A DNA stretch of 59,442 nt, taken from positions 1-59,442 of the forward strand of contig JBJCIZ010000448.1 in assembly GCA_051294375.1 (NCBI GenBank). The letters are read 5' to 3'. Shown in pieces: positions 13,380-52,501 of the stretch; the first letter of the stretch is position 1; each line of letters begins with the position of its first letter. Both the position numbers and the translations under genes were made by a program. Source of the stretch: Paraspadella gotoi. Lineage: Eukaryota; Animalia; Chaetognatha. The notes below the pieces were generated by a model that ran no database searches, was not told where the DNA came from, and saw nothing but the letters and a program-made list of their open reading frames with translations.

Positions 13380-15340
13380 CGATTCTAAGTCGGTCCGGTC
13401 GGCGAGTGAACAAGGCGAGACATTGCGGTGTCCGTCCTAGAAACCATTCGAAAGCGGTTGTGTCATGAGAGATGATTCCTTTGTTTCTCGGTTGAGTGAA
13501 TGATCGTCCATGCGGAGTGACTCCTTTGAATACTGTTTGTAANNNNNNNNNNNNNNNNNNNNNNNNNNNNNNNNNNNNNNNNNNNNNNNNNNNNNNNNNN
13601 NNNNNNNNNNNNNNNNNNNNNNNNNNNNNNNNNNNNNNNNNNNNNNNNNNNNNNNNNNNNNNNNNNNNNNNNNNNNNNNNNNNNNNNNNNNNNNNNNNNN
13701 NNNNNNNNNNNNNNNNNNNNNNNNNNNNNNNNNNNNNNNNNNNNNNNNNNNNNNNNNNNNNNNNNNNNNNNNNNNNNNNNNNNNNNNNNNNNNNNNNNNN
13801 NNNNNNNNNNNNNNNNNNNNNNNNNNNNNNNNNNNNNNNNNNNNNNNNTCCTCGATGAATTCTGGAGGAAATTGAGGTTGTGTGAAGTCGCGTGAAGATG
13901 AAAGAACATTAAAATACTTATATGTAGGAAAAGATAATAGATCAATGAANNNNNNNNNNCCCAATCTTCGATCATCTTGACGGTAACCCCGCTCTCGCAG
14001 GTGTCGCATCGCTCGGGGTTGAGGCACTCGTCGAAGTGTGCTTGGAGGGCGAGAATCGCCATCTCGCCAAAGAAATTCTTTCTGAACTTCGGAGGCACAC
14101 ATGCTTCGCTCGCCGCATCTTCCCTGGTTGCTATAGTTGAACCAGTCGCCAGATTCGAAAGATGGACGTTGAGCTTGCTGGTACTCTGCCTCGTTCTCCT
14201 TAAAGTCGTCGAAGGTATGTCTGCCGGGGTACGGCAGGCAAAACATCGCCTGTAAAAATGAGTGACAGAATATTAATGAAATATTTCGTGTAACTATCGG
14301 CGTGAAGAAAAAAAATAACCTGGTAAAGTCTGGTCCATATATGAGTTTGCGCTCTCATTCCTGGCGAACCGGAGTGGAACATGCTAACGAATTGAACATC
14401 GTCTTCTTTGCCATCGCGAGTTATTCTTCGCAGCTGGGCGAAGAATCCAGATGGCACGATTCCTAGATTTAGATTTAAATTTAAATTCGAATTTAAATGT
14501 TGGGTTGGATATTGATAGGTACCTGATTGCGATTTTTTTTCTGGCTCATGCGATAATTCGATCGCGTACGAGCTACGCCCGACTCTTGACCTTTTGATGA
14601 GGTATTTCTGAGGAAGGAGTGAAAAAATTATATCAGAGAGAGGGAGAGAAAGATTTTTTTCCAGACCTAAACATATTTCCTTTTACCTCGCAGATTTGGC
14701 GAATATGATCCGAGTTGTTGTAGAAATCACCGTGCGAGTTCGAGTTGAGTTCTCTATTAAGGTCGTTTATGCCGATCTAATAAAAAGAGAGGATTTAAAA
14801 AAATAAAAAGAATTTGGAGATGTGTCAGTCAAAGTCCTTTCAACCTGCAAAATTTGAAAGGCGCCCTCTTTAGCTAGTAGCACGAGGTGCCAGAGCGGAA
14901 GTACCCAGCAACGTCGACAATCGCTAGTTGTAAATCCCGACTAAGAAACGAGGGTAAATAATTAAAATAGCACAGTCGCGAGCGAATAAACGAAATACTC
15001 GGTGTCACCTCTTTCCAATTACGGTTCGCTTCGTTATCCACTCGACGAATTTCGACGATAGGCTCGTTTTTCTCGTCAGTCTCGAAGATGGCGATTCGAT
15101 CGTTTGTCAGGCGCACGGTATTAACGAGATCCTGATCTAATTATGCAACGAAAGGTATATTACAAAACTTAAAAAGGAATGTTAGATTCTCAAACTGCAC
15201 CGACCGAGAGGTTGGCGATGAAATTCTTCGTAACGCCTCTCTACAACAGAGAAGTCTTGTCGGCGAGTAGTGAGGTCAGGCATCCCCAGTATCCAAGAGG
15301 TAGTTAAAATTGTTTCTCACGTAACGTATTATTTTATGAA
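13380..15340 (-). CDS. Multi-exon hypothetical gene downstream of polB (frameshifted, N gap, cut at the inversion junction)
   Basis: Coding-like ORF pieces (14874-15116, 14200-14457, 13437-14246) separated by short AT-rich GT..AG segments and mirrored in 9900-11868. Contains ECLNPERCDTC. No family recognised. Confidence 0.5.
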
Positions 15341-15375
15341 ATCTAGTGCAAAAGAAGCGAAAATAGACAACAAAC

Positions 15376-18300
15376 TCAAGAGTTCTCCGAACGTGATAAA
15401 ACGTTTTTCAGATACAGAGGATAAGTGAAAAAAAATCTATCATCGTTATCGGAATTTTGGTACAATCGTTTGGATGTGAACCGAGTAAGAAGTTTTTTAT
15501 ACTCCTTAACAATGTAAATACGTTGATTCCTTCTCCTTATTCCATGTTGGGCGACTTTCCTGGTTGGTTCGTTGGTGCTCACGGCTTTTTCATAATCGTC
15601 GATGGTGATATTATTTAAAAATACATTTCTCTTGACTCCCTTAGATTTCGCTACAGACAATTTCCCGTTTGCATTCCCGCTCGGTCGATTGCAAGGAAAG
15701 TTGGGAAGATTGGGATAGGTGTGGATCGAATACTGCTTAACGGAAGTCGCAAAAACCGTCTAAATACAGATTAATCTTATTGTTATCGTTACTGCAATTA
15801 CTTTATATTATAGCTCGATGATATTAAACTAACCTTGACCATTTTTGTACTAAGCTCGTCTTTGTAAAGTCCAGAGTTATTCTTTGTCGACTGAGCGAGA
15901 AATTTTAACATAACTTGAAGTTCCTTTTTCGCCAAGCATTGATACACGAAGGAATCCTAAACAATAAACGACAAAACCGACAATAATGTTAATATCATTA
16001 AAATAAAATCGATAAAGCAATACCTCGTTCAAACAGGAAAAATCCAATAAGGGAGTGAAAGTTTGAAGATAAATGTTGGACCAAATACTTCCGGTGAGGC
16101 TTTGGGTCAGGGCGATGTTCCTATCTGAATGTGTTAGTTCGAGTAATTCATTTCTCTCGTTTTCGGACTTCTTCCGGATGAAGCTGTAGAGAAGGCTGTC
16201 GGTATCTTGAAATAGTAACATTAAAGACTTAATTATTTCAGGGACAAAAATTGTTGCAAAGGGCAAGATGTTGCGTCGCAGCGAGTGACTACGTATATCT
16301 TAAAAAAAGTTAACCAAGNNNNNNNNNNTTAATCAAGCTTGACGGTCTCAATCCATATTTTATTAAAGATAATTTTTATATTAGTATATTTAATTTACGG
16401 ATTTTAAACGGTCACGTGACCAGGTCACGTGACTGGGTAGGTACATGCAAAAAGAGCTGCTCCGTCGACACTCGAGTCGCGATCGAAATAATATGTATCA
16501 TATNNNNNNNNNNATATCAACTTATAAATTTATATATTCTTATATACCTGTGACCATAAGTCGAGAATTAATGTTGCCGATTTTGGCGATATTGGCAACA
16601 AAAGTGAAATTCGAACGCCATAAATACAACTTAGAATTTGAATAAATTTTTGATGAGAGGTAAGGAGCGTTACGTTCCTTTATACTTAATCCGTCTTTAA
16701 GTATGACCACGGCATTTTCGCTTATTTTGCGGAAATCAAAAAAATGGACGTTATCAACTTCCTTAAAAAATTTCTCTTTTCCTATACAGATGGAGGAGTT
16801 AAGGTATTTAGATCTTTGTTCGTGCATTTTTCCATTTATTGTATTAGACAGGGCCTTTATAGCTTTACCCAAAATATTAGATTTCACTTTCGATCTCTGA
16901 TCCTGAAGGTACTGAATGTAATCGCTCAAATATCGATATGAATTAAAACGGACGATTTTAAGCACTTTCGTGATTCTCATTCCGTGGAAAATACACGAGT
17001 ACAAAAGATTCTCCACAAAATCGGAAATTTGGGTGGGTTGGGTGTGAATTGTTGAAATCAACTTCGCTGGTTCCTTATCAATCCGACGACCTAGCTTTGC
17101 AGCTGAGTCGATTTGATCGGGATGCAATTCGAAAGATCTCACCTTCCTGTTGATTGGCAGGAGGCACAGATCAAGATTAACGTCACTCGCCTCGTCCATG
17201 TCCGTCTGCGTTTCGATTACAAACAAATAGCCGACGTTGTTTACTGTTAGCTCTTGATTAAAGAATTCGACTTCGGAACTAAGCAGTTTCTCGCTCAACA
17301 TATGAAAGGTTTCAGGGTGGGTAGCTTTTTGAAGTATTTCAAATCCACTGTGCGGGAGGAAGCCATTCATCGAGAACGGATAGAGACCTTACAAGCAGAG
17401 AAATACTAANNNNNNNNNNAAAAAAACAGATTTCCTTTGTAAAAGAGGATGTTTTTAGGGAGATTTCTTGACCTACCGTTGGCGTCGATGTAGGAGGAAG
17501 TCGTTAACTCCTCCTCTTCATCAAATTTGTATCTTCCGAGAAAGGAAAAAATGGCAGCGAAACCACCCAACTAAAATGACAGATTAATCATAATTAGACT
17601 TAACATGTATATATATATAACTATATGTAGAAATAATTAAAATAAACATACCAGATTACTTTGAAAAATTTGATAAGTTTCAGAATCAAGCATCTCCAGT
17701 TGCAGTCTTTTCTCCGGTTCTCTTGGATCTTTCGCGTGGTACAAAACAGACGTAAGCGCAAGACTCGAAATAGTCTACAGAATGAAGGGATACTGATTGT
17801 ACAAACGATACCATGGACAAAAGTAAAACTTAACCATTTTTTGCTGCAGTACCATTTACCAAGAAATGTGCTGGATAAAAGCCCACGACCTCATGTAATT
17901 TTTCAAAGAGGAATTTCATTGTATCCGCGAGGTTTAAGGAATCCCAGATATTATAAAAAAAAATTACGTTGAACAAATTTTTAGCGTTTAATCCGTGCCA
18001 GACCAATTTGAAGATGTCATAGTCCTCCTGAGAAATCTCACTTTTTCCGCTTAATTCCGAGTAAAAATCCTCTATAGGCGGAACTTGTTTAATATTTTCC
18101 ATTGCTTCGAAACTGCTCAGTAGTTTGAACGGCATCACAACTTTTTGACGGATCAAGAATTCAAAAAACGAATCTGTAAAGTCGCAATCTTTAATAAATT
18201 CGTAAGTGGAAGAAAACATCTCCGCGAGAGACTTCTCGTCGTTGTTGCAGGCCGTTGTGTAACAATCCTTGATGATATAACTGAGTGGGTGAGAGATCAA

Positions 18301-20853
18301 CAAAAAACTGTCCGCGATAACTATGTACCTATCCGAAAAGCACTTAAGAGGGAAACCGTGAATTCTCGCAAATTCTTGTCGCTCATCCTTTGAACGAGAA
18401 CACTTTGGACACATTGAAGGAAGATGACAAGAAAATTTAAATCGAATCGACAGAGGAGTGTTCTCGTTTCCGCTAAAAAGCACCTTCGGAGCCTCCCTAA
18501 TTATAGGTTTGAAGACCGGATTCCCCAACACGTCGTGTGACACGTTGGTGCAGTGCGTTGCGGCCTCGATAAGACTTTGCAGTAAGAAAATCCATCGTAG
18601 TGACTAGAATAGTGACAAAAAATAGTATGGTTGATTTTATGCGGTAAAAAATCCACAAGATTCAAGTTGCAACCTGCACAAGTCAAAAATCTCATTTCTT
18701 TTTTCCCTGTGTAGACGTGGGAGTGGTCCAAAGTTTTTTTTAAAGTATAAACCCTACCCGTATACTTATTCTTAGATTTAGTTTGGAATTTTTTTCCACA
18801 CAAATCACAAAAGCTCTGTAGATTATATTTAATTCTTTCCTCTAAAGTTAATTCGTGCAGTTTGGGTATTCCTTTATCTGCTTTATAGACTTTCTGAATA
18901 TATTGGTGTAACTTCCACGCATCGTCCCTGAGTCCTAAAAGAAGTTGAATGAAAAAATCTCTCTCGGTTTGTATTCTCTCATCCAAAAATTTACATCGGG
19001 GTTTTCTTAATTCCTTCGGTAAGGGAAAGTCCTTCTCATAGAGTCCCTTATGTACCAAGCTATAAGACAGCACCTTTTGCTCACTGACGGCGCTATTGGG
19101 AGGGGGGGGGGTGTTGACTGAAACACGTGCGTTTTCGCTGCGATCGATTGGAACGGTGACAGCCTCAAAATCCATGCAGGAAAAAAATAAAGGTTTAATT
19201 TTTTTGTAGAGCATCCCCCTTTCAAACCGAAGAACATTTTTTTCAAGCTCGCCAGTCCACGGATTTTCTACATGGGTCACGTGTACTGTCTTATTTGAAG
19301 CCTCTCGTCGTCCCAGTCCCGACGAGAATGCTTGACATATCTCAATATGATCGGAATAAGTTCTTTCGTTAGCGAACAAAGTAACACACTTGCGGCATAC
19401 ATATCTGAATCTATTTGAATTAAATTTTTTTTCGATGTTTGATTGAAACGATAGCAAAAGCCTGGCCAAGTTAGAAATAAACAGTATATGATCCGTTTCG
19501 TTGTGTTTTAAGTTAAAATTTTTTTCGGGGGGATTCTCTCTGATGCAGGGAGTGTCCGCCAACAAGTCGATTTGATGATAGTTATCGTCGTTATGGTGCG
19601 AGCTCAATGCGATTGGAAAGATCGAATAGGCTTTAAAATTAAGTGCCTTGCGGATTTTAAAAAGATTAAGAGATATCCCCTCAAAAAACGTTAATTCGGG
19701 GTAAAATTTAATTAAAGAATCCGGTATCGGAGAATTTAGTTTTTCAAGCTTCGAGAAATCATTAACGTTTAACCCATCGTCGTCGATATTTATCAAGTTG
19801 CCTGTTTCAATCGCCGAGACAACCTCTTTGGCGTATTTCTTAGGAATACGTGTTAAGGTTTTAGTGCCAAATTTGTTTTCGAGGCTAAGCATTACCCCGT
19901 ACAGAACACATAATTTCGTTCCTTCATTGACCAAAACATAGTTATCCGTATCAAAGACATTCCTCATGAAAGCAGACCGCAATTCGGATTTAAAAATTTT
20001 TTCTTCGTTCAAAGCCCCGTATCTTATCAAATTATTCGTAGAAGGAACGGCGACATGTCGAACGTGCAGTGTGTTGATGTACAAATATGTCCACCCCGAC
20101 TCACGCAAGTCCGACATATAGTGCACGTGCGAAACCAAAAAATTAGTAAAAGAATGCAAGAGGTTTGATATGAAGACTTCCTTGTCTTGGAGCCCTTCCA
20201 TGATAAAATGCTGATTTCTATACGATATCCATTGCGAGATTCTATCGTTCAAGTCGGAGGCTCTCCCGAATTCGACCTCTTTGCGAAAGAAAGAAAAAAA
20301 AGAGAAAAAAAAATGTCAGTTAAATAGATAGAAAGGAAAATAGATAGAAAAAAGAAAGAAAGAAAGAATGAAAGAAAGAAAAAGTAAGAAAAATTAAACA
20401 TATATTATAATATTATTATTATTATCATTATTATTATTATCATCGTCTTTATTATTATCATCATTATTATTATCGTCGTTACTGTCTATGACTAATTTAT
20501 TACACACCTGCAGCGATCCAGACCAGGTAACGGAGAGGATGTTGTTGAGCGTCTCTTGGGGATAGGAGTTGCCTCAAATAAGCTTGAGCGTGTAATAAGT
20601 AGCATCTCAATTCGGTTTCAAGAAGCAGTCTCTTACTACCCTCTAATCGCCAATCTCTCGTCATCACTCGTTTACTAGAAGCTCCCGTAAAGAGGTCACT
20701 GGTTGTATAACTATAGATTCTCAAAGTATTCTCGTTTATTTCCTCCAAGATAGGAGAATTTAAAAGTTCGTTTATCAGTTCATTTTCATCGTCTGANNNN
20801 NNNNNNTCGTTTTGATAGTTTTCCATACTCGATTTTTTAAAAGTTACTGACAT
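15376..20853 (-). CDS. polB: Protein-primed family B DNA polymerase (pPolB), 8 exons, ~1,530 aa
   Basis: Exons 20853(or ATG 20826)-20508, 20278-17860, 17774-17652, 17570-17477, 17387-16548, 16298-16024, 15956-15834, 15759-15376; all GT-AG introns restore frame. Motifs: N-terminal ESGW, C2HC finger, ExoI CMDFEA, EndoVII-like CDLC..DHSH..CAGCNL, ExoII HYSSHYDG, ExoIII YNIWD, PolA YIDANG|LYP, PolB KALSNTINGK, PolC QDTDS, GLYKDE, KSKGVK. One 1-nt frameshift in a T-run near 18590 (probably a sequencing error). Confidence 0.96.
16410..16434. promoter_or_regulatory. Tandem palindromic E-boxes GGTCACGTGACC / GGTCACGTGACT in polB intron 5
   Basis: Two adjacent GTCACGTGAC (USF/MiT-TFE-type) motifs in an otherwise AT-rich intron 16299-16547; minus-strand TATAAAA at 16380-16374. 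Confidence 0.5.
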
Positions 20854-20879
20854 GCGAAAAAGTTAATGTTAGATAATAA

Positions 20880-21575
20880 TCAATTTTTAAGAAAATCATC
20901 CTGTTCTTTCATCGACAAATAAGGGTTTATGCCTTTCGGTGAATAAACTTCAACAAATTGAAAAAAAACTTGTTCAGAGTCTTTAGCGGTATTATCAATA
21001 TCGATATCCTTAACTACGATGCACCGTTCCAAGATTATCCCATCGTGACGTAAGATTTCTGGAGGATGCCTTTCGTCGTACCCTCCAGAGATGTCGCGAA
21101 TCTCCGCCGCTTTCTCGTCCCCCGAACATGAGCTATCGTCGGCTTCTTGAACACTGTAACAAAGAAAAAAGGGATATTAACTCGCGAGAAGAAAAATAGC
21201 ATCTTTTTCTTTTTTTAAAAATTATTTTGTAGGCAACGTGATTGATTAAAATTNNNNNNNNNNNNNNNNNNNNNAAAAAACTCACATCTGAATAAGATCG
21301 CGGATGTGATCTCGAAAGCGAAGGAGTTCTCGCATCCTCCGAGGTCTCACGCGGAAATAGGCGGCACGCGCAAGCGCAAAAAAAGACAGGGGAAGTCTCG
21401 AACGTCCGACTTCGCGAAAACCCGTCGCTTCGTGATGCAGAAGTATCTTTTCAAGCTCTCGATTGTTAATGTCTCTTTTTTCTTCATCGGCGAAAAGATC
21501 ATTCAAGAGTTTCAACACAGCGACGAGACACACTGTCTTTGGAATCGTTTCTAGTTTTAGATCTTCAGAATCCAT
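20880..21575 (-). CDS. Unknown-family paralogue C (2 exons)
   Basis: MDSEDLKLETIPKTVCLVAVLKLL...EATGFREVGRSRLPLSFFALARAAYFR. Phase-2 intron (AT|gtgagt...ttacag|T), then exon VQEADD...DDFLKN*. Confidence 0.7.
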
Positions 21576-21699
21576 TTTTTTTCGCCCTGCTTTTTTTCAA
21601 TCTGGACAAATTTGAAGAAAACACAACATTGATTAAAAAAAAATCGACAAAAAGAACAAAACGAGAGAATATTCTAATACATTTTTTATTTTTACTAAA

Positions 21700-22590
21700 A
21701 CAGTGAGAGGGATCGGATTATTGATTGTACCACATGTCTTTTTTTTCTACCTCCGTAAAAACATTGCCCTCCTCGACGACGTATAGCCGCCCATGTTTCA
21801 CCTCTCCGTCTCTCCTGTCCTCCACCGAAAAAGTTTTTTTTTTCATCACCAAACCATCGACATTCACCACAATCCTATCAGGATTCCTTTCCTCTCTGCC
21901 CTCGTCAATGAATGAAGCTCCTTGGGAATCTCAATTCGATTCGAAGGTTCGTCCGTCGCATCGAGGCTGTTAAAGAAAAGGAGAAAGATTGAGACGAGAT
22001 GATTCGGATCGATTCTTTGTTTCTTTTCATCAAGAAATTGATTTTACGTAAATTTGCAGATAAACAGGTATACTTAAAGTTAAATAAATAAATAAATAAA
22101 TATATTATAAAGAAAAACTTACATTTCTTTCACATTCCAGACGTGTTCAGTAAACCCGTCCAAGTGATTGTCATTTTTGTCAAGAACGGCGAAGAACGTG
22201 TTCGAAGCAGACACCACGAATCAAACTGAGGAGAGAGAGAGAAGGAAGAGAGAGAGAAGCGGGTTGGGAATTAGATCGAATGTTAATTTATTTTTGTATG
22301 AATATGAAATCCTACTTTTGGAGAAAAAAAAATAAAAATAAAAATTATTACCCTATTTCACTAACCAGTAGTCTCGTTCCGCCGAGTTCTGCAAAGCCTT
22401 CATTCTCCTTATCGAAGAGCCTGTCGAGGACGAGTCGATTAGTAACCTTGACGCCAGAGTCGACAAAGGATTCCTTCAAGAATTGAAGGAACGAGAGAAC
22501 GCCTTTCAAGGCGACGGTTCTTTTGGGTTGGAGTCTTCGTCTCCTTCTGACCTCTCTGGCCATCTCTTGCCAAACAGTTAAGGCCTCCAT
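21700..22590 (-). CDS. Unknown-family paralogue B (3 exons; 3' end approximate)
   Basis: MEALTVW...KRTVALKGVLSFL...ENEGFAELGGTRLLVSEIG|LIRGVCF...|LDATDEPSNRIEI; two phase-2 GT-AG introns. Confidence 0.7.
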
Positions 22591-22732
22591 TGTATTTGGA
22601 AAAAAGTTTTCAAATTCTAGTTTCTGATACAAGGGAAATGTTAATAGATATGTTTTCATGTTTTTAAAGAGAGACAAGTACATAGCAGGGTTATATAATT
22701 CTAAGAGAAACTGATAAACTACTTTTGTCTAT

Positions 22733-23491
22733 TTAGTTAAGTCGTAGACGTTTAATTTGTCGTATCAATTCCTCTCTCGCGTTTTTCCCGACCTCGACGT
22801 AAACGTTTCGATAAGACAAAACCGAATCATCGTCGTCGTCATCCTCATCGTCGCCGCTTCTCGTCCAATTCGTGTAATCTGCCGTGAACCTGACGACGTT
22901 CAAGTACGACGTTGCCTTGCGCAATGATGCGTGGGGGATTCCGGCGATGTCGCCCTCCCACGATGTGGTGGGCGTATCTCGGTTTATCACGATCCGAGGC
23001 GCTTGATCGGCGAGGTCAAGACTGTGGGAAACGTAAAAAGCAAAAAAAAAAAAAACGTGTTACATCTGTAAGTAGAAATTTGTTTTTATATTTTTAAAAG
23101 AAAACTATGATCTTACACGTCATCGAGCTTGACTACATAATTTTTAAACTCCCGAGTATGTTTTCATTTTTTTCTGGTTTCTTTCGGAAAAATGCGGCCC
23201 GGTGGAGAGCCCTGACAAAAAAAATTTAATATTAGTTTCATCCGTAGCCCTGTGTAACCGCCGTGTTAATCAATTCATGTTTTTTTGTGATTTATTTCTC
23301 ATTTACCATTCGTGCAATGGCAGTCTGTTGTCTCCCAGTTCTTCGAACCCCTCTTTCTCTTGTCTCATGACCTCTCTTTCAAGATTAGCCTTCGTCGGTC
23401 GACCACGTCGTCCATATTTCTCCTTCAGAAATAGGTGTACTCCCTTGAGGCACACGGTTTTTACAGCTGCGGGGGTTTGTTCTTCAGTCAT
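22733..23491 (-). CDS. Unknown-family paralogue A (3 exons)
   Basis: MTEEQTPAAVKTVCLKGVHLFL...EKEGFEELGDNRLPLHEW|ALHRAAFFR...|LDLADQAPRIVINR...RLRLN*; first intron 23306-23212. Confidence 0.72.
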
Positions 23492-23616
23492 GTCTTTTAG
23501 TTGTTTTTTTAAAAAAACTACAGCAAAACAAAAAACAATTTCTATTTCTGAGGAAAATATTTTCTGACACTTTGAATAACATTTGTTGAATAATACTAAA
23601 TCCAAGCAAAATCAAG

Positions 23617-40336: not shown

Positions 40337-40372
40337 ATCATATTTTAATTTGTTCTTTAATCAATATAGATC

Positions 40373-40687: not shown

Positions 40688-40722
40688 CCGAGGACCGGGT
40701 AAAAAAAAACAAAAAAAACAAA

Positions 40723-41803
40723 ATGGCGGAAGGGATACGATTCGGGGACGCGCCCCTTTCTCGGATCACGCCTGTGGTTACACCGCAAATTGATTCACTC
40801 TTGAATAACAAAGTTTACCTCGAAGACGGGTGTCTCTTTAACGGTATGAGATAAAAAATCCGTTATTCGAATGTTATCCACACATGTCATACTAAGTACT
40901 TAATTTTTTTTCCTCATTAGGTTATGTAAGAATAAACCCAGGTAAATAGATGTGAAATAAAAATCCTTATAGTCGTTTTTCTTCAGTTTTACACCTTTGT
41001 TAATTCTCTCACCCCCTTTACCAATAAGAGGACACGACCGAACTTTCAAAAGGTGAAAACATTTTCTATTTTAGGGTGAATTTTGTCTATCATTTCATCA
41101 CAACGTATTCTTTCAATTTTTAACTTTAGGAGGGCGAGCCATAAGTTTTAGATTCAACGAGAAAACGGCATTTTTGAATCCACATCGCTTTTTTCTGGAC
41201 ATCGAGATTGTCGCTACTAAAGAAGACGGAAGCGCGTTGACAACTTTTGACGTGTCGACTCTCCCTCTGATGGGTCAGGGGATCCTGGACAGCGTTTCTT
41301 TGAACATAGGATCTTCGCAATTGGTTAAGGTATTAATTGAAACGAATGATTTCTTTTTTCAATGATATTTAAAAATATAACGATTGTTTTAGTACGACAC
41401 GAATTACGGGATCATAGCTCGCCTGAACTACATAACTAAATACAGCCTTGCGGCTCGACAAACTTTTCTTCGAGAGTTCGAATATTATATCGAAGACCAG
41501 AACGACGTCGGCAGCACCGACGTTTCAACTTTCTTCGAATCGAAAACCATTGGCGGGGTCTCGAAAAAAGTACCCAAAGGCGAAAATGGCAAACGAACCG
41601 TTTTGCTGCTCGACAAAAATCCGATTAAATTTCGTTTGTCCTTCTTCTCTCCCCTCTCCACGATGAATTGCCTCTTACCCAACAACCTGGACATAACACT
41701 TCAGTTTTACCTAACTAGTCGTGAGTCTTTAAGTTTGTCAAAAAGACGAAAAAAAAAAAAAACAAAAAAGACATAGAACGATTCTTAATCTCGTCTCTCT
41801 CCG

Positions 41804-41834
<31 letters not shown>

Positions 41835-42768
41835 GGAGAGATACTTTATCACACAGACCGCCGGATTAAAACCGAAATTCTCTGTCAAATGTAATCTAAT
41901 TTTTATTTTTATTGGTAACTTATGACGATTAATCAATAATTCCTTATTACTTTTTAAGCTTGCTGTTTGTATGCCAACGTCATTCTACTGCGTCAGAACC
42001 TCCTGGAGAAAATCGAGAGTGCTTTGATCGCCCGCCCGATCCAAGTCAATTACAATGTGAGAAATACCTAATCATTAAAAATATATAATTATTTGATTTG
42101 ATACTTATTGGTTATTTTTAAGGCCACATTCGCCAAAGTTTACTCATTGGAAACAGGAATTACAAACAAATTTATTACCTTGACGTTAAAGAATAGCTTT
42201 TCCTTCGCCGTTGTCCTACTTCATAAAAACACGGTCCACAACGGTACGCTAGCGTCATCGATCCAAGTATTTGGAAGGGAAAAATTGGCACGTGCATTTC
42301 TCGAAGTAGGGATTAGTTCCAAGATCCCCTCCCTCCCCCTCGGAAATTCGGGTAAGAAAACAATTAAATAAACCGGTATGATCAAATAAAAGTATAATTT
42401 TTTACTCAGGCGACGTGGACGGTTACTCTTTCGTCAACGAGTGGGCGAGGAAAGCATCGTACCAACACGTCTGCGATACATTCAACTTTTTGACGGAAAA
42501 AGGAACTGAGGACTTCACTTTACAGGACTTTCTTAATACACGGTTTATGTTACCCTTCAAACTGTCTCCCTCCGTGAACAATATCAATCTAGACGACGCG
42601 CAGTCGCTACAGTCGACAATAAATCCAGGAAATCAATATCGTTTATACTTAGAGTTTGAGGAGCCTTTAACTCATGTTTTAAACGTAACGGTGGTTTTCA
42701 CGCAAGCTCGATCATTATTAATAAAATCTAACAGGTTGGTCTTCCAATCTGTTGACGTCGAGCAGTAA
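40723..42768 (+). CDS. Double-jelly-roll major capsid protein, 9 exons, 478 aa, intact
   Basis: Exons 40723-40843, 40921-40941, 41029-41052, 41130-41329, 41393-41720, 41834-41890, 41959-42056, 42123-42351, 42410-42768 total 1437 nt with no stops. Motifs AISFRF..FLNPHRFFLDIEIVATKEDGS, NYGIIARLNYITKYS, LLPNNLDITLQF, FMLPFKLSP, YRLYLEFEEPL match the Polinton MCP pattern. Confidence 0.93.
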
Positions 42769-42808
42769 CTGACTAACTAACCACAATTTTAAATGTTATT
42801 TCCAAAGT

Positions 42809-43354
42809 ATGGATTTTACAGAAAATAATCTTGTCACTTCGGACAGTGACTTGAAAAAAATTTTGAAGAAAGACAAATTGAGTTATAATACTATTTTGAA
42901 AGGAAAACTTATTCTTTCTTACGACGAAATGCATAACANNNNNNNNNNTAGAATAAAAAAACATAAAATTGCTATAATAATAAATACTTTATCTACTAAA
43001 GAAGCAGAGTTCGATAAAATCGGTCATTGGTTAATATTATGCGTTTATCTTGTAAATAATGTTGCTGTAATTATTGATCCGTTGGAGAGGCTGGAAGAGG
43101 ATTTTCCGCACGTTAATAGAATAATAATCAATTTTTGTTCAAAAAATTTGTTTTCATTAAAAAGATTGCGCCTGAAATCGCAACATGATAAATCAAAAGC
43201 CTGCGGTTTGCAGATTTTATTCTATTTGAGAATGTTTTCTCATAATAATAATACAAATTATCTTTTTAAACTAAAAACGCTATTGCTAAAATATTCATTA
43301 GCAACAATCGAAAATTTTGTCATAAAATCTGTAATTAAAATGTTTCATTTGTGA
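42809..43354 (+). CDS. Adenain-like (clan CE) capsid maturation cysteine protease
   Basis: IIINT...IGHWLILCV...IIDPLE...SQHDKSKACG: His, Asp, Gln, Cys in adenovirus-protease order; directly after MCP. Confidence 0.9.
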   Translation: MDFTENNLVTSDSDLKKILKKDKLSYNTILKGKLILSYDEMHNXXXXRIKKHKIAIIINTLSTKEAEFDKIGHWLILCVYLVNNVAVIIDPLERLEEDFPHVNRIIINFCSKNLFSLKRLRLKSQHDKSKACGLQILFYLRMFSHNNNTNYLFKLKTLLLKYSLATIENFVIKSVIKMFHL

Positions 43355-43365
43355 TTTGATGCAGG

Positions 43366-43578
43366 ATGCCAGGCGTAGACTTGAACTTAACACCGTTCGT
43401 TAACAGAATTAAGACTTTTTTCTGGAAAGTACTAATCTCAATAGCCCTCATCAGCCTAGTAATTTCAAATTGGCTATCTCTTGAGTTTCCAAACCTCTTT
43501 CACAAGAATGTAAACGATTCCAACGACACCGACTCGAAGAGTGATAAGTGGAATTTAAAATTGTCTGTTTTGAACTGA
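43366..43578 (+). CDS. Small single-pass membrane protein (70 aa)
   Basis: Hydrophobic FFWKVLISIALISLVISNWLSL; acceptor GATGCAG|gATG upstream; AATAAA overlapping the stop. Confidence 0.5.
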   Translation: MPGVDLNLTPFVNRIKTFFWKVLISIALISLVISNWLSLEFPNLFHKNVNDSNDTDSKSDKWNLKLSVLN

Positions 43579-43812
43579 ATAAAAAAAACCAAGAACATGT
43601 TTACTTCGAAGAATATCGATCTGGCACCACTGCAACGGAACTTGCCGCAAACGGAAGCGACAAGGAGGCACCCGCCGTCGACGAAGAAGGAGACAGAAAA
43701 GAAAGAAGGTAAAACGGATGCTCTTTTTACTTTCCCGACCGAAACCAAACGGATCGGTTATTTTTTTTCACTTATATTACAAAGGGACGAGCGAAAAAAT
43801 AGTTTTTGCTAA

Positions 43813-43945
43813 GATTAGGGTGGGGTAGGGTTAGGGTTAAGGAGGTTAGGATTAGGAACAGTTAAGGTTAAGGACGGTTAAAGGTTAGGGATAGTTAGGA
43901 TTAGGGTTAGTTAGGATTAGGGGTAGTTAGGATTAGGAGTAGTTA
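43813..43945 (+). repeat. Degenerate telomere-like (TTAGG/TTAGGG) tract with G-quadruplex motif
   Basis: GATTAGGGTGGGGTAGGGTTAGGGTTAAGGAGGTTAGGATTAGG...GTTAGGATTAGG; four G3 runs at 43818-43836. Confidence 0.8.
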
Positions 43946-44281: not shown

Positions 44282-46624
44282 ATGAGTCACACCGACCGTT
44301 ATGTATTATTAATATTTGTTACTACAATTCATGCCTTGGAATATTTAATATACACTCAAGTTTGAAATTCATTTTTTTCTACAAATCTATTTCTTATTTT
44401 TGACGATGATAATGATAAGAAGCCCACCCAAACGAGTTTTTAAAAATTAGCTTAATGACTTAATTATTTCGAAAAAAGATTTACTTTACCACATCTGTTC
44501 GCTTGTTGCAAAAATCCTTGAAAAGAAAAAAAAAAACTGGAGTGGAAACACAATGACACTTGAAAAATCATTAATAGAAAGAAAAAAATTAGATAACTTG
44601 AGTGAGAAAGGACAAATTAATTGCGGAGTTTTGGCTCATGAAGTTTTAAAATTTTATTCCGGTCCAGCTTCTTTAAACGAAAACGAATAGTAGTACAACC
44701 CGTAGTGGGAGTAAAATCACGTATTGAAAAGATAAGGGTTTTCTTTTTTTTTTAAAAAAAGGGGGGGGGAAAGCATAGCCATTGTTACATGAACACAAAT
44801 ACTAAAACAATAAAAAGACTCTCATCTTAAGCATTGAATTCAAAAAATGGAATTGTTTAAACAAAACTGCATTAAAGTCGCGAGAGTAAAGTGTCATTTT
44901 ACAATTATCAAAAGTTTTCAAATTGTAACTCAAGGACGTTAAAAACGATTGCTTTTTAAATCATTTGAACCCTTCTCCCTCGGACTCTAGTTTAAAATCA
45001 TCAGAAGTCGATTTTAACACTTCGAGAATCCTAAATACACACTCTCCGCTTAATGACCAGACAGAAATTTTTTTACTCGCGATGACCGCAAGATATTCTC
45101 CCCACCTTAAACTCTCCAGAACTAGTTCACCGCTCTTTTTCCAAAAACCTCTTCGTCGATGATACACAGAGATGTTTCTTCATCGATTTCATCACACACT
45201 CTCTCCACCCTTACCAGTCTCCAACAAGAATCGAATCAACATTCACGAAACTGTTCACCCCTCGTTTCTCTCCAACGACAACGAACGCGACGGAATTTAC
45301 CAACGATAGTACGACGGTTAAAGGACCGTTCCCCTTTCGTTTTTCTCCGACGAGGAAACCGCGATGAAAGGGCAATGGGACAGTCACCAGACCATCCAAG
45401 CCTCTTCGTTCCTCTCCGACCGTGGAAAGCACGACGAACAACGCAAATGTCGCAGCACGTGTGTCAGTTTGTTCCTGTTCATTCTGCTCTCCTCACTGAC
45501 CGTTGCAATAATTCCTCCAAAAAAATTCGTCGTCGATCGGTACGTTTGTTAATTCATTGCTTTTAAGACAAAATACAAACCACGTAACAGTTTTTTTTGT
45601 TTTTTTTCAGCTAAGCGAGAGAATCCTGGATTGGAGAAGACGACGTTTATGTAACGAGATCAGGAGACGACAAGAAATACAACTTCGACAAATTCCGTTC
45701 ACAGTCGAAAATCCGGCTTCTATTTCTCTTCCGAATCAAGATAATCCTGCAACTCCGAGCGAGGAAAACGCGAACTCAGTCACGTCGTTTTCTTCCCCGT
45801 CTCATGGTAATTTTTCCTCTCTCTCTCGCTAACTCGCTCGACTCAATCAGGTTCTTACTAAATCACTCACACACTTCTCAATCACTCTCGCTCAATCACT
45901 CCTCAATCACTCACTCACTCGATCACTCTCTGCTCGATCTCCCTTCACTCAATCACTAGCTCAATCACTCTCTCCTCTCTCTCTCTCTCTTTACTTTTAT
46001 ACAATAACCAAACTCAATAACTTAATGTGTTATTATTTTATTGTATACTATACCATTTTTGTTCAGCTCCTCCCGCTCTTCTCCAGAACTTAGCACGGTA
46101 TGAAAACGACTACGAGGAAATCTCAAATTTGGAGGTGGGACGGTTTCGTCGAATCGATAAGGCGAGAAATGACTTTAATTAATTAACGAATCACTTTTAT
46201 TAATTATTTGAAATATGTTACAGTTTGTCTCAAATGCACAAGAACCTGCTTGTACCAGAACAGGGAGACGAAAACTATTTAAACCTGTCAGGTGAAACAA
46301 ATCAAATTCATATTTCTTTTATTAAAACATCTCAAAAAGACTAAAACTTTCTTTGTTTATTTTCTGCTACAGTTTGTTCAAATGCACAAAACCCGCTGTG
46401 TTCAGAAACAGGGAACGAAAACTATTTAGAAACTGTCAGGTGAATGCAAATAAATTCATAACTTTTTTATTAAAAACATCTCAAAAAGACTAAAACTGTT
46501 TCTTATTTTATTTCTGCTAGCTCGGTTCACACGAAAACTCTGACGTTCAACTTCCATTGGCCTCCAAAGCGAAAACAAAACAAAAAATAAACTTTTCTTG
46601 GTTTTAAGCGGGAAGATGATTTAA
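44282..46624 (+). CDS. Putative type-I membrane glycoprotein: signal peptide, Cys-containing ectodomain, S/T-rich stalk, TM helix, Tyr/Pro-motif cytoplasmic tail (multi-exon, frameshifted)
   Basis: MSHTDRYVLLIFVTTIHA; S/T-rich stalk ~44965-45440; TM SLFLFILLSSLTVAII followed by a basic stretch; intron 45540-45610; tail exons encoding DEN(D/N)YEEI, EQGDENYLEPV, ENYLETV and VQLPLPPKRKK...KMI*. Consensus taken from both copies. Confidence 0.62.
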
Positions 46625-46879
46625 GCCAAAATAATCATGTCTTCCAATTTTTTTCTTTGTAATTTAAAAATCCTCGAAAAAAAAAAATTAGAATTACTTA
46701 CTACTTATTTCACAAAAATCCGTCTTAAACTTAGATTTGAATGCGTAATTCGACGCTGCGACTCTGTAACTAGCACCAAAAATCACTTCAACAAAAAACT
46801 ATAGCGCGACGGCAGCGCATTCAGTTCCCTATTTTTCTTTCGAAGTCTATAGAACTTTTCGTCCGAAAACTTAGAACCC

Positions 46880-49800
46880 GATTTAACTACTGTGCCAATT
46901 GAGACGATCTTCGTGCTTTCCTATGAAAAAACTTTTTGAAAGGCCTCCCTCTCTCTCGCTCTGAAGCAAACAACGAAAATTGTCTGCAATTGCGCCGTTT
47001 AAAATTGGCGGTCTTCCGTGGCTCTGCTCTTTTTTTCTCTCTCGGTTTTTTCTTGAGACTCTGCTCTTTGAGATCTCGCAGCGTCGCTGCTCGGAGGAGA
47101 CCCTCATTTTAAAACGCGCCAATTCAGACAAATTTCGTTTTTCCTCTAGAGAGAGAGAGAGAGTCAGAGTCGAACCTCTGAATGCCTGATTCGCAGCTCC
47201 AGCGACTCTGTCTCTTTTTCTCTCTCTGTTTTTTTGAGACTCTGTTCTCTTTCGAGGATCTCGAGCGTTCCTCGCTCGAAGAGAGCCTATTTAAATTGCG
47301 CCAAGTTCAGACCAAATTTCGTTTTTTCGCTCAGATGAGAGAGAGAGCAGAGTCGAGTCGAACCTTCGTAATGTTGCTGCTCCGCGCGAACTCTTCGTAT
47401 TTTTTCGACTTCTGGGAAACCAAAAATTTTGCGAGCGCGACTCGACAGAGTCCTCAAAGAGATCAGAGGAGAGAGCGACAGCAGTCTCGTCAAGAGACAG
47501 AGATGAGAGCTGAGGATCTATGTAAACAATGAAATTGGTAAATCTTTGTATATAATTAGTCCATCTTTGTAATTTTTTTTGTCTTTTGTCTAATTTATTT
47601 TACATTTTCTTTTAAAATGTGTACATACATATATTGCTACACGCGCTCATCTATACTTACTTGCATTGTCTACTGTTCTAAATTTCTCACATCTCTGTAC
47701 ATTAATAAATCATATCCAAACTCAAAAATCTCTCTCTCTCTCTCTCTCGTCTCCTGATGGACATAATCGCAAAATTGTGCTGAATCTGGCGGCACCATTT
47801 TAAATCGATCTCGTCCTATGCAGAAAAACTTTTTAAAGTACCTCTCTGCTCTCTTGCTCTGATGTGAACAAAATCGCAAAATGAACTCTGTCTTCTCTCT
47901 CCGTTTCTCTGAGACTCTGGTCTCTCAGAGATTCGAGTTGTTCTCTCGGCTCGGCGGCTAGGAGGGACGGAATTTTCAAAATAGTGTCCAATGCAGACAA
48001 TTCTCTGCTGCAGGATATTAACGAATTTTGTTCTGAATTGGCACATTTAAAATGGGGTCTCCTTCGAGCCGTCCTGGCCAGAGAGATGAAAAAAAAGACA
48101 GAGTCCAATCTCAAAGAGACAGAGCTCTCAAAAAAAACAGAGAGAGAAAAAGAGACGAGTCGCTGAGCTTCTAATCGTAGCATTCGCAGCTGTTCGACTC
48201 TGACTCTCTCTCTCTCACTGCAGGAAAAACGCAAAATTTGTCTTGAATTGGGCGCCGTTTTAAATACGGCACGCTCGAATCTCAAAGAGACTGAGTCTTC
48301 CAAAAAAGAGAGAGAAAAGAGACATGATCGCGGAGCTTCGAAGATCGCGCATTCTCGAGGCTTCGACTCTACTTTCTCTCTCTCTAAAAAACGAAAATTT
48401 GTCTGAATATCGCGCGTTTTTAAATCAGGGTCGTCCTCGAGCAGGAGCTCGAAAATCGGTGACGATGTTTCGAAGAGACAGAGGATGAGGAGAGAGTCTC
48501 AAAACAGCAGAGAGAAAAAGAGACAGACAGTCGCGGAGCTCGAATCTCTCTCTGTCTCTTATAAGACCTCTCTCGCGCTCACACAACTTTTTTTGTTTCC
48601 CGAAGTCGAAAAATCAGAGTCTCGAAGAGACACGAGAGAGACGAGAGAGACACGAAGTTCGAACCTCGAATGTTGGTCCGCCGGCAACAGGACGCTTCGG
48701 AATCCTCAAAGAGACAGTAGTCTCCAAAAAAACAAGATGAAGAAAAAGACGGATCAGAGTCGCTGGAACTCTTCATATTTTTTTGACTTACGGTTGAAAC
48801 TCAAAATTTTGTGAGCGCGAGGACAGAGTCTCAAAGAGACAGAGAAGAGAGCTCGAATCGAGACAGGTAGGTCTCGAAATCTCTCTCTTTTTTNNNNNNN
48901 NNNNNNNNNNNNNNNNNNTCCACCCTTACCAGTCTCCAACAAGAATCGAATCAACATTCATCGAACTGTCACCCCCCGTGCGCTAACGAACACGAACTCC
49001 GACGCAATAAACCATCGATAGTACGACTTGTTAAAGCGACCGTTCCCCTTTCGTTTTTCTCCGACGACGGAAACCGCGATGAAAGGCAATGGGACAGTCA
49101 CCAGACCATCCCGAGCCTCTTCGTCCTCTCCGACCCGTGGAAAGCACGACGACAACGCAATAGTCGCAGCCACTGTTCGATCAGTTTGTTCCTGTTCATT
49201 CTGCTCTCCTCACTGACCGTTGCAATAATTCCTTCAAAAACAATTCTCGTCGGATCGGTACGTTTGTTAATTCATCGCTTTAAGACAAAATACAAAACCA
49301 ATCGTACACATTTTTTTTTTTTGCAGCTAAGCGAGAGAATCCTGGATTGGAGAAGACGAACGTTATTGTAAATCGAGATCAGGAGACTGACCAAGAAATA
49401 CAAACTTCGACAAATTCCCGTTCAACGCTTCGATAAATCCGTTCTATTTTCTCCCGAATCAACTATACTCCTACAATCATCCGAGCGAGGAAAACACGAA
49501 CTCGTCACGTCGTTTATCTTCCCCGCTCATGTATTTTTCTCTCTCTCTCGCTAACTCGCTCACTCAATCAAGTTACTTACTACAATCACTCACACACTCT
49601 CAATCACTCTCACTCAATCACTCCCTCAATCACTCAACTCACCTCGATTCACTCTCGCTAGCGATCCCTCACTCAATCACTAGCTCAATCACTCTCTCTC
49701 TCTCGCTCTCTCTCTCTCTCTTTACTTTTATAAATAACCAAACTCGAAACTTAATGTGTTATTATTGTTATTACTATACCATTTTTTTTCAGCTCCTCCC

Positions 49801-52501
49801 CGCTCTTCTCCAGAACTTAGCACGGATGAAAACAACTACGAGGAAATCTCAAATTTGGAGTGGGACGGTTTCGTCGAATCGATAAGGCGAGAAATAGACT
49901 TTATAGTAACAAATTACTTTTATTAATATTTGAATATGTTACAGTTTGTCCAAATGCACAAGAACCTGCTGTACCAGAACAGGGAGACGAAAACTATTTA
50001 GAACCTGTCAGGTGAACAAATAAATTCATATTTCTTTTATTAAAACATCTCAAAAAGACTAAACTTTCTTTTTTATTTCTGCTACAGTTTGTCAAATGCA
50101 CAAGAACCCGCTGTGTCAGAACAGGGAACGAAAAACTATTTAGAAACTGTCAGGTGAATGAATAAATTCATACTTTTTTATTAAAAACATCCAAAAAGAC
50201 TAAACTGTTCTTATTTTATTTCTGCTAGCTCGTTCAACAAAAACTCTGACGTTCAACTTCCATTGCCTCCAAAGCGAAAGAAAACAAAAAATAAACTTTT
50301 CTTTGGTTTTAAGCAGAAGATGATTTAAGCCAAAATAATCATGTCTTCCAATTCTTTTTCTTTGTAATAAAAATCCCGAAAAAAAAATAGAATTACTTAC
50401 TTACTTATTTCACAAAAATCCGGTCTAACTTTAGATTTGAATGCGTTAATTCGACTGCTGGACTCTGTAACTAGCACACAAAAAATCACTTCAACAAAAA
50501 CTTAGCGCAGGAGCGATTCAGTTCCCTGATTTTTTTTTTCTTTTGAAGTTTAGAACTCTTCGTCGCGAAACCTTGGAAGGACCCGATTTTAAACGTTGCC
50601 AATTGAGACGATTTCGTCTTTCCTATGAGAAAAACTTTTTGAAGGCCTCTCTGCTCTCTCGCTCTGAGGAAAAACGAAAATGTCTGAATTGGCGCGCTTT
50701 AAAAATGGGGCTTTCCCTCCGAAGCCAGCTGAGTCGAGACAGACGGTCTCAGAGAAACGGAGAGAGAAAAAAAGCACAGAGTCAAGACCTCTCTCTCTGT
50801 TAAAAAAAGGAACGGGATCTATGTAAACACTGACTCTCCTATGAGAAAAAAAACTTTTTGCAGAAGACCTCTCTCTCTCTCCTCTCCTCTCTCTCTTTGC
50901 TCTGAGGAAAAAACGAAAAATTGTCTGGAAGTTGGCACGTTTAAAATTTTCGTCTCCTCCAGCCGAAGAACATTCGAATCTCTGAGAGACAGAGGTCTAA
51001 GAGAAACGGAGAGAGAAAAAAGAGGACAGAAGTTCAAGACCTCTCTCTCTCGTTCTGAGGAAAAACGAAAATTTTGTCTGAATTGCAAGTTTTAAAATTT
51101 CGTCTCCTCTGAGCCGCCTAGTCGAGACACTCGAATCTTGAGAGATCAGGAGTCTCAGAGAAACGAGAGAGAAAAAAAAGGACAGAGTCAAGGATCTCTC
51201 TCTCTCTGTCTCTTCGAAACTTCTGTCCCGATTTGAGCACTCCGCGACTCTGTCTCTTTTTCTCTCTCTGTTTTTTGTGGACTCTGTCTAAATTTCGTTT
51301 TTCCTCGGAGAGAGATAGAGTCAGAGTCGAACCTCGGAAATGTGCTCTGTCGGAACTCTGTCTTCTTTGAGATTGAGCGTCCTGCTCGGAGGAGACTTCA
51401 TTTAAAACGCGCCAATTTCAGACAAATTCGGTTTTTCCTCAGGCGAGAGAGAGAGAGTCAGAGTCCGAACCTCGGAATGTCCGATTTCGAGCTCCGGCGA
51501 CTCTGTCTATTTTCTCTCTTCTGTTTTTTTTTGAGACTCTGTCTCTTTGAGATTCGAGCGTGCCTATTTTAAAACGCCGCCAATTTCAGGACAAAAATGT
51601 TCGTTTTTTCCTTCAGAAGAGAGAGAGAGTCAGAGGTCGAACCTCGGAATGCCCGATTCGAGCTCCGCGACTCTGTCTCTTTTTCTCTCTCTGTTTTTTT
51701 TTTTAACTCTTCATATTTTGTACTTAGGGAAAACAAAATTTTGGAGCGGCGAGACAGAGTCTTCAAAGAGACAGAGGAGATCGAGCCCGAATCGGGACAG
51801 AGCTTCGCGACTCTCTGTTCTCTTTTTCTCTCTCTGGTTTTTTTTTTAACTCTTCATAGTTTTGACTTAGCGGAAACAAAATTTTGAGCGCGAAGACCAT
51901 AGTGATGACAGGGACGCTCCGATCTCAAAGAGACAGCAGTCTCAAAAAAAGAGAAAGAGAGAAAAAGAGACAGAGTCGCCGGAACTCTTCATATTTTTGA
52001 CTTAGGAAAAAAAATTTGTGAGTAGCGCGAGACAGGTCTAGGAGGAAACCGAACGAGTCAGAGTCTCAAGAGCAGAGAGAGAGAGAGCTCGGCGGCGAGG
52101 AGGAGATCCGGAATTTTAAACGTGCAATTCAGAACAATTCTCTACGTGAGGAAAACGAATTTGTCTGAATTGGCACATTTTGAAAATGGGGGTCTCGCTT
52201 CGAGCGCCGAGCCAGAGAGAGAAAAAAAGGAACAAGTCGAGCCAGATCAGAGTCCATATTTTTTACTCCGTGGCAACCCCAAAAAAATTTGGAGCGCGAG
52301 ACAGAGTCTCAAAGAGCACAGAGAGAGAGAGAGGAGAGATCAGGAGTCGGAGCTCGAATGTTAGTGCGCAGGTAGCTCTTCGTTGATTTTTGACTCCACA
52401 GCTCGGGAAAACGAAAATTTTGGTATGCCGTCAATTCATTTTAAGATTTCCCTCGAAAATCGCAAATTGTGTCTGAATTTGGCACTGTTTCCTATACTAC
52501 T
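46880..52501. repeat. Subterminal/TIR-like repeat array (~100-150 bp units in both orientations), interrupted by the duplicated block
   Basis: Recurring core AAACG(C/T)GCCAATTCAGACAAATTTCGTTTTTCCTCAGAGAGAG...GAGCTCCGCGACTCTGTCTC and its reverse complement; the last core lies ~15-40 nt from the ACTACT end. Confidence 0.75.
48919..50715 (+). repeat. Direct second copy of ~45203-47015 (3' part of the membrane-protein gene plus start of the terminal repeats)
   Basis: Same start TCCACCCTTACCAGTCTCCAACAAG, colinear to ...TTGGCGCGCTTTAAAA; begins right after N gap 48894-48918. Confidence 0.85.

Follow-up and report, generated by a model that had tools for sequence, protein, structure and literature searches.

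Positions 13380–52501 of a contig from Paraspadella gotoi hold an integrated Maverick/Polinton-type element, about 35 kb long plus a missing left end. The window, the whole stretch of DNA that was analysed, measures 59,442 nt. The protein-primed DNA polymerase B gene (polB) of this element is spliced in RNA at host-type GT-AG introns, and its probable major capsid gene (MCP) is predicted to be split likewise. The splicing of polB and of an accessory gene (gene X), catalytic motifs in register, the Maverick gene order and the end motif were all observed. The element probably belongs to a lineage that gains and inherits introns while still copying itself. Mavericks are otherwise treated as intron-free.

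The polymerase gene and its splicing

The polB gene (15376–20826, minus strand) consists of eight exons with about 1,494 codons, separated by seven GT-AG introns of 67–342 nt (minus strand; 15760–15833, 15957–16023, 16206–16547, 17388–17476, 17571–17651, 17775–17859 and 20279–20507), in keeping with the seven or more announced in the preliminary description. The exon phases chain across the introns. With phmmer, 287 matches were obtained at E ≤ 1e-3, and the Pfam domain DNA_pol_B_2 was found in 8 of the 28 that were scanned; in the Atlas, polB falls with clusters carrying DNA_pol_B_2 and Endonuclease_7. The exonuclease and polymerase motifs are in register with those of relatives, one intron interrupting motif A and another motif C. 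The product is thus a protein-primed family B polymerase, as in other Mavericks/Polintons. Neither a word-seeded search of longer proteins using one polB exon nor a PDB sequence search gave a match.

The polymerase region was compared with four runs from three studies, three of DNA (X1–X3) and one of RNA type (X6). Six of the seven polB introns are skipped in X6 and none in X1–X3, the long contigs of which pass straight through the introns; the seventh, 20279–20507, lies outside the stretch compared and is predicted. Over polB and gene X together, X6 contains 11 joints, all CT..AC on the plus strand, and none of the 11 occurs in X1–X3. This RNA evidence comes from one run of one study, which is only presumed to be RNA and in which unspliced sequence occurs as well. 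The joints show that polB depends on the spliceosome, so that both this claim and the check on RNA junctions proposed with it came out positive for the polymerase region.

The polB frame is broken near 18.6 kb in the window. The breaks in polB and gene X are missing from all four runs, and eight of the ten differences between runs and window in polB exons are silent. These intact frames argue against the reading that the insertion is decaying and that introner transposons or other insertions colonised it once it had integrated. Maverick-Polinton-like elements are known to carry introners, most of which arrived secondarily (PMC11957031), and parts of the present element are unreadable; however, the 21 introns tabulated here do not form a family of similar sequences, sharing a single 14-nt match and not being copies of one another. 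We consider such colonisation largely refuted and the least probable of the readings discussed.

The capsid arm

Five ORFs on one strand follow the order int-mCP-PW-MCP-pro, which is that of Mavericks, anchored by the integrase and protease matches. Three ordinary-looking Mavericks (L007, L008 and L013), picked from 11 loci of two motif scans, served as references; the remaining loci were other Polinton-like viruses or phages. Searches of viral contigs for relatives yielded no confirmed one.

The probable retroviral-type (rve) integrase (37090–38765, plus strand) has an intact C-terminal half at 38145–38765, which matches the rve integrase of L007 (E 7e-5 among 1,549 pieces). A five-sequence profile gave E 7e-8 for this half and E 0.5 for a collinear fragment of the core. 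The catalytic DDE core is unreadable, the region from 37.1 to 38.1 kb being noisy and partly non-coding, and the introns that had been announced for this gene were not confirmed. Next to it lies an intronless ORF of 516 amino acids (38786–40336, plus strand), probably the single-jelly-roll minor capsid protein (penton) judging by gene order, length and motifs seen by eye. Its position is that found in L013 and in vertebrate Mavericks; it is longer than its L013 counterpart (255 amino acids), its ends resemble the reference by eye only, and the pairwise scores (z −0.6 and 0.0) are not significant. At the PW position, a short basic ORF (40373–40687, plus strand) scores z 1.2 against its L013 counterpart. 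For 38100–43400, no RNA run was found on record.

The probable MCP gene (40723–42768, plus strand) is predicted to comprise nine exons, two of them of just 21 and 24 nt, and eight GT-AG introns (plus strand; 40844–40920, 40942–41028, 41053–41129, 41330–41392, 41721–41833, 41891–41958, 42057–42122 and 42352–42409), the number put forward earlier. The predicted introns are 58–113 nt long and contain one to four in-frame stops each, while the exons chain into 478 codons with no internal stop; GC content is 0.45 in exons versus 0.26 in introns. The identity of the gene is probable from gene order, length, motifs by eye and a weak Atlas lead: it lies at 0.97 to double-jelly-roll clusters (PF21738/PF04451, in 10–22% of members), with a recognition value of 1730, below the mark of 2300. 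A profile of 120 ordinary Maverick MCPs gives no significant match (E 1.7, hhalign P 0.2), and the global score is reached by 5 of 100 shuffles. The last exon, folded as a single sequence, reached pLDDT 39 and its fold search found no match. The profile check suggested for spliced products therefore favoured the polymerase and not the capsid protein.

The probable adenain-type cysteine protease (42809–43354, plus strand) is intronless, with His, Asp, Gln and Cys in register with L013 by eye. Its score against the L013 protease (z 3.1) was reached by 6 of 300 shuffles, and that against Pfam Peptidase_C48 (E 0.074) is below the cut-off; a word-seeded protein search gave no match, nor did a fold search with the single-sequence model (pLDDT 41). 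The probable A32-type packaging ATPase (29740–31835, plus strand) is noisy, with a long low-complexity middle. Its C-terminal part resembles the ATPase of L013 (z 5.3, 0 of 300 shuffles) and not that of L007 (z −0.2), and the match to a four-sequence profile is not significant. By eye, Walker A is only suggestive, while Walker B and the downstream motifs align. The one intron predicted in it from phase, 31583–31747, agrees with the earlier claim of an ATPase intron. A full virion module is likely to be present; of the complete core gene set that had been described, polB and the C-terminal half of the integrase are borne out, and MCP and penton have no significant profile match.

Accessory genes

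The element contains about 10–12 accessory ORFs, close to the ten additional genes first listed, and Pfam gave no significant match for 39 frames of the window or for 11 trimmed pieces. Gene X (13374–15283, minus strand) has at least six introns, five seen as joints in X6 and a sixth implied by the length of that contig, so that introns are also present in accessory genes, as had been stated; its 3' part extends beyond 13374, and three of its frames have no Pfam match. Three small paralogous genes (20880–23491, minus strand) have in common an N-terminal domain of about 55 amino acids (pairwise z 6.2–11.5, 0 of 500 shuffles each). Each has candidate introns; under the splice guesses a clean exon chain resulted for the third only. 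A 935-codon open frame (23649–26456, minus strand), with Cys/His clusters followed by a charged low-complexity tail, and two or more noisy multi-exon genes (31998–36340, plus strand) likewise have no Pfam match.

Extent and assembly of the element

The right arm (45204–52501) carries a small gene in which one exon-intron unit is repeated in tandem, followed by 150–180-nt repeats in mixed orientation, and ends in ...TACTACT. The final ACTACT (52496–52501) matches the Maverick (ACT)2 end motif, at this right end only. A host satellite array with a period of about 540 nt (52502–59442) starts mid-unit exactly at the end of the element. Part of the right arm is present twice around a 25-N gap (45204–47008 repeating as 48919–50708, 88% identity), and a second overlapping pair (33754–33962 and 34000–34218) adjoins another 25-N gap. 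These two blocks inflate the 39,128-nt span, for which about 39 kb had been given; the figure of about 35 kb without them, with the left end missing, stands. The element is giant compared with intact vertebrate Mavericks (12.7–24.6 kb; PMC8097293) but not with protist elements, which span 14–40 kb (PMC10120064), and the 21 introns together add only about 2 kb.

No left end, pair of terminal inverted repeats or target-site duplication was found within the window, and 11850–13400 does not match the right arm. Position 13380 is not the end of the element: contigs of X2 and X6 continue past it, with sequence seen after 11870 in an inverted copy. This noisy copy of 13380–23658 (1036–11870, plus strand) is likely unpolished long-read fill. 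Its aligned part (1036–11420) is 84% identical, with 725 gap openings against 525 mismatches; its longest stop-free frame is 159 amino acids versus 604 in the 13380–23658 copy, and 11 of 13 tested introns are present in it. None of the four runs covers 12900–13373, perhaps just because of noise. The inverted copy, the duplicated block and the left end at 13380 look like assembly artefacts.

Gene orientation switches at a GC-rich island flanked by CT/GA microsatellites (29378–29575), and the polymerase and capsid arms are joined through noisy sequence (26.5–31 kb). Given this noise and the other scaffold artefacts (the inverted copy and the overlaps at 25-N gaps), the two arms might be unrelated sequences fused near 29.4 kb, no single 35-kb element existing. 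The arms, however, complement one another: each core gene occurs once, and the introns are of one style in both. The stretch from 20.8 to 33.9 kb contains no 25-N gap, and Maverick modules pointing away from each other are known (PMC8097293). A chimera is accordingly very improbable.

Relatives and intron history

About 100 separate clusters at 50% identity make up the divergent group in which the polymerase falls. The best matches of this polymerase are 33–37% identical, and the proteins are about 20% identical to ordinary pPolB. In a tree made by a quick method, the group containing this polB has an SH-aLRT of 86 and no strongly supported set contains it. In two independent metagenome contigs, L001 and L002, polB is made up of stop-free exons and contains introns. 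They have two intron positions in common, at 61% identity over 273 codons, dN 0.30 and saturated synonymous sites; in the overlapping parts, neither shares a position with the window polB. The three polymerase genes read as DNA thus have different intron sets. Related ORF calls end in Arg in 18 of 100 cases against a background of 5% (p 2e-6; 3 of 42 in an outer group). An AG|GTAA donor betrays itself by such a terminal Arg, which indirectly supports the wider intron-bearing lineage that had been postulated and for which the two contigs speak directly.

In the Maverick family, pPolB copies the excised linear DNA, the ATPase, capsid proteins and protease package it, and the integrase inserts it. 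Carried over from the family, the same steps would apply here; host RNA polymerase II and the major spliceosome would produce the mRNAs of the element in the nucleus, and the element itself would be copied from DNA to DNA. As this copying would include no reverse transcription, gained introns would not be purged. Sub-lineages may gain introns independently and then pass them on, which fits relatives that have introns in common of which this element has none.

Alternatively, the host may keep an immobile Maverick, domesticated or merely fixed, whose introns were gained after integration and inherited with the chromosome. In favour of this, the polB region is nearly identical, with few variants, in four runs from three studies; polB is transcribed, in contrast to nematode Mavericks, for which transcription went undetected (10.1101/2022.07.12.499685); the integrase core cannot be read; and host descent might account for the introns common to L001 and L002. 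On the other side, the terminal motif is sharp within a fast-changing satellite, the whole gene set is retained in Maverick order, and some 100 clusters, with differing intron sets in three, fit a diversified virus lineage better than a single fixed locus. We regard immobility as unlikely and prefer a lineage still copying itself. The broader proposal, for which we see roughly even chances, is that the element represents an undescribed clade of polintoviruses, large, nuclear and widespread (about 100 polymerase clusters in one search), with spliceosome-dependent replication and capsid genes and independently gained introns. Such a clade would have been missed by every ORF-based survey, and one or more of its members would undergo expression and splicing in the host.

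Comparison with known systems

With animal Mavericks/Polintons (adintoviruses; PMC8097293, L013) the element shares pPolB, the int-mCP-PW-MCP-pro order and the (ACT)2 3' end, and probably the ATPase, integrase and protease; unlike in these, about 9 kb separate polB from the ATPase, and the two genes are on opposite strands. Vertebrate Mavericks have intronless core genes and (AGT)2//(ACT)2 or (AG)3//(CT)3 end motifs (PMC8097293), whereas here there are seven polB introns and eight predicted MCP introns in about 35 kb or more. The cargo-bearing Mavericks of nematodes (10.1101/2022.07.12.499685) also have intron-containing accessory genes, but their core genes are intronless; the RNA joints in polB set the present element apart. 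Intronless core genes are a described trait of Mavericks, not a defining one.

Surveys using prokaryotic gene callers and length filters, such as one with an ORF filter of 200–900 amino acids and the stated assumption of intron-free viruses (PMC10120064), have a systematic blind spot for a spliced, expressed Maverick. Since polB and, by prediction, MCP are split by introns, gene finders expecting unbroken viral genes would likely miss the group, as had been predicted; the largest MCP exon is 118 amino acids. The joints are direct evidence that a Maverick is expressed in the nucleus via the host spliceosome, and the related genes, whose intron gains are numerous, independent and datable, offer a test set for intron origin and retention in viruses.

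In the literature we found no report of spliced Maverick core genes, apart from introner insertions in dinoflagellate elements. Introns are also known from mirusviruses, which we take to be another, herpes-like realm. Their short GT-AG introns in virion genes were taken as a sign of nuclear reproduction (PMC12768974); many mirusviruses have no polymerase, and some of their introns encode homing endonucleases, for which the introns described here are too short. The introns of the dinoflagellate Maverick-Polinton-like elements were copied from introner families and for the most part entered once the element had integrated (PMC11957031), whereas those of the present element are mutually unlike, and its relatives L001 and L002 keep common intron positions over a saturated synonymous distance.

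Splicing of polB and gene X

The introns of polB, the protein-primed DNA polymerase B gene of the Maverick/Polinton-type element (eight exons, 15376-20826, minus strand), are real and spliced, as are those of the accessory gene X beside it (13374-15283, minus strand), at sites of the major spliceosome. Four public runs were aligned over 12900-20310: the DNA runs X1, X2 and X3, and X6, the sole run of RNA type, a status that is itself a guess. Twelve joints, at which run sequence skips window sequence, were listed; 11 are exclusive to X6, six in polB and five in gene X, all with CT..AC borders (GT-AG on the minus strand). The twelfth is present in the DNA runs and substitutes low-quality window sequence. 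In X1, X2 and X3, contigs of 5-6 kb retain the introns skipped in X6, so these are real DNA and are spliced out. The polB introns of the preliminary description are thus borne out by RNA-type junctions in six cases, the seventh intron lying beyond the stretch compared. For gene X, a sixth intron is implied by the length of X6 record 23. X6 also has an unspliced contig covering the 342-nt polB intron, and a contig connecting the last polB exon to gene X.

None of the four runs shows the frame breaks that the window has near 18.6 kb in polB and near 14.1 kb in gene X, and the 10 run-versus-window differences in polB exons comprise eight silent and two replacing changes. Expression of the element would take place in the nucleus, as for host genes, and copying of DNA to DNA would include no reverse-transcription step to strip introns. 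Mavericks replicate by protein priming, are packaged and integrate; by analogy, the element may do the same. The main rival reading, an immobile copy kept by the host, we consider unlikely. At 13967-14099, in gene X, all four runs contain two variants that differ seven times within 133 nt, which means that there is a second copy or allele.

Within the 342-nt intron, two exact GTCACGTGAC palindromes are located 13 nt apart (16411-16433). The motif occurs three times in the window, including once in the noisy inverted copy of the polB arm (shuffle mean 0.01), and presumably resembles the USF site of the adenovirus major late promoter; the pair is possibly an internal promoter.

Comparison with known Mavericks

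Apart from introner insertions (PMC11957031), the accessible portions of the literature searched describe no core gene of a Maverick that is interrupted by spliceosomal introns; examples may exist in the founding 2006-2007 papers or in Repbase. Term look-up found no mention of them in the available text of PMC10748475, PMC12220804, PMC11296320, PMC8502044, PMC6431247, PMC11071296, 10.1101/809541 and 10.64898/2026.10.13.758929. As far as the accessible portions go, intact vertebrate elements are 12.7-24.6 kb long and without introns (PMC8097293), and nematode Mavericks combine intronless core genes with intron-containing cargo, transcription not being detected (10.1101/2022.07.12.499685), in contrast to the spliced polB of the element. 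Similarly partial sources give sizes of 15-20 kb (PMC5718144) or 14-40 kb, the latter defending prokaryotic gene calling by the absence of introns (PMC10120064), and describe mirusviruses as rich in introns (PMC12768974).

Gene identities and the capsid gene

No significant Pfam match was obtained anywhere among the window frames and pieces searched. Part of one polB exon, used as query, retrieved 287 relatives, 76 of them at E ≤ 1e-10 and the best 33-37% identical; DNA_pol_B_2 is present in eight of the 28 scanned. In the Atlas, the N-terminal part of polB falls with Endonuclease_7/DNA_pol_B_2 clusters, mostly eukaryotic, with arthropods commonest, which points to the host no more than weakly. 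The C-terminal half of the integrase matches the rve integrase of the ordinary Maverick locus L007 (E 7e-5 among 1,549 pieces), while its core is unreadable in the window sequence. In pairwise tests (13 matched, five mismatched controls, the latter all at z ≤ 0.4), only two proteins stood out: the protease, at z 3.1, and the ATPase, at z 5.3 against a second reference locus, L013, and −0.2 against L007.

The gene at 40723-42768 is probably the capsid gene, with a probable penton gene upstream of it, beyond a small ORF. Against a narrow profile of 120 ordinary Maverick capsids (63-100% identical), the capsid candidate, with X at exon junctions, ranked second at a non-significant E of 1.7; hhalign gave P 0.2, and the global score was equalled in five of 100 shuffles. 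The Atlas related its last exon to double-jelly-roll clusters at a score of 0.97, recognition being low. Given these weak results, both calls hang mainly on gene order, length and motifs judged by eye; the order integrase-penton-small ORF-capsid-protease is shared with L013 and, as far as partial sources describe them, with vertebrate Mavericks.

Nine capsid exons, two of only 21 and 24 nt, are predicted; joined in phase, they give an open frame of 478 codons uninterrupted by stops. Each of the eight predicted introns contains one to four in-frame stops, and GC content is 0.26 compared to 0.45 in the exons. With a splice-site matrix trained on 11 confirmed introns, the intron sites outscore GT/AG sites of intronless genes (p 0.0014 and 8e-7, n = 94 and 142), a partly circular comparison, the sites having been picked by eye. 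The eight introns proposed at the outset are consistent with these features, as predictions from sequence. After the protease, a short ORF (43367-43579) contains a hydrophobic stretch which may be a membrane helix.

Relatives of the polymerase

In a quick, midpoint-rooted tree of 143 rows (eight of 150 hits being excluded as too short), the window polymerase falls in a group of 101 rows (drawn open; SH-aLRT 86), separate from 40 rows of ordinary pPolBs, the products of polB genes; no strongly supported set contains it. ORF calls end in Arg in 18 of 100 cases within its group (background 5%, p 2e-6) versus three of 42 outside, as expected if an AG|GTAA donor is read as coding, an indirect sign, contig ends and decay cutting ORFs too. 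Homology among the group's calls breaks off at a few common places, and a few outer-group calls likewise have intron-like tails, so introns may extend beyond one clade of pPolB. P0102, P0113, P0132 and P0149, calls from the ordinary group, end directly after motif A, with donor-like tails.

Among 376 metagenome candidates, two yielded DNA of relatives. The polB of one (L001) has four GT-AG introns, that of the other (L002) one whole and two partial, with every exon stop-free. The two have two intron positions in common and are 61% identical over 273 codons (dN 0.30, synonymous sites saturated); in overlapping parts, they share none with the window polB, and no sequence family was found among the 21 window introns. 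This suggests separate gains in sub-lineages, followed by inheritance. The intron-bearing lineage proposed in the preliminary description thereby gains DNA support from two relatives. Decay via introners, weaker than the immobile-copy reading, is very improbable. Tandem units of a ~67-nt exon plus its intron (46224-46439 and 49945-50153, period ~143-150 nt) would represent one visible route to intron multiplication.

Assembly, extent and ends

Scaffold quality is uneven across the window, which is eukaryotic sequence. Positions 1036-11420 repeat 13849-23658 in inverted orientation; the two are 84% identical, gap openings (725) outnumbering mismatches (525), and the copy extends to ~11870. Its longest stop-free frame is 159 residues, versus 604 in the good copy, for which reason 1036-11870 is taken for long-read sequence that was left unpolished. 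Another two duplications flank 25-N gaps; overlaps at N gaps are a typical product of long-read gap filling. That the element is an assembly chimera is improbable, clearly more so than an immobile copy.

The element spans 39,128 nt including the duplications at the gaps, and ~35 kb once duplications are taken out; the latter of the two sizes first proposed holds. Only ~2 kb is due to introns; a long repeat arm, 10-12 accessory genes and an enlargement of core proteins (polB ~1,494 codons versus 1,146 in L013, penton 516 versus 255) make up the rest.

The left limit of the preliminary description, 13380, is not an end: X2 and X6 contigs extend before 13374, matching noisy-copy sequence after 11870. 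The 1.5 kb of AT-rich sequence at 11871-13373 begins with the true continuation of gene X; no match to the right arm was found for 11850-13400. The right end, ...TACTACT at 52501, is followed immediately by a satellite (52502-59442, ~540-nt unit) beginning mid-unit; (ACT)2, also the most frequent 3' end motif of vertebrate Mavericks in the accessible part of PMC8097293, is present at this right end. The terminal arm (46900-52501) consists of 150-180-nt units in both orientations, and its renditions around the 25-N gap seem partly inverted to each other beyond the shared part. Within the element, a degenerate TTAGG/TTAGGG telomere-like repeat follows the protease gene (43815-43945). Positions 1-1010 contain, between N runs, segments resembling exons and introns; of no relation to the rest of the window, these are perhaps host gene sequence.
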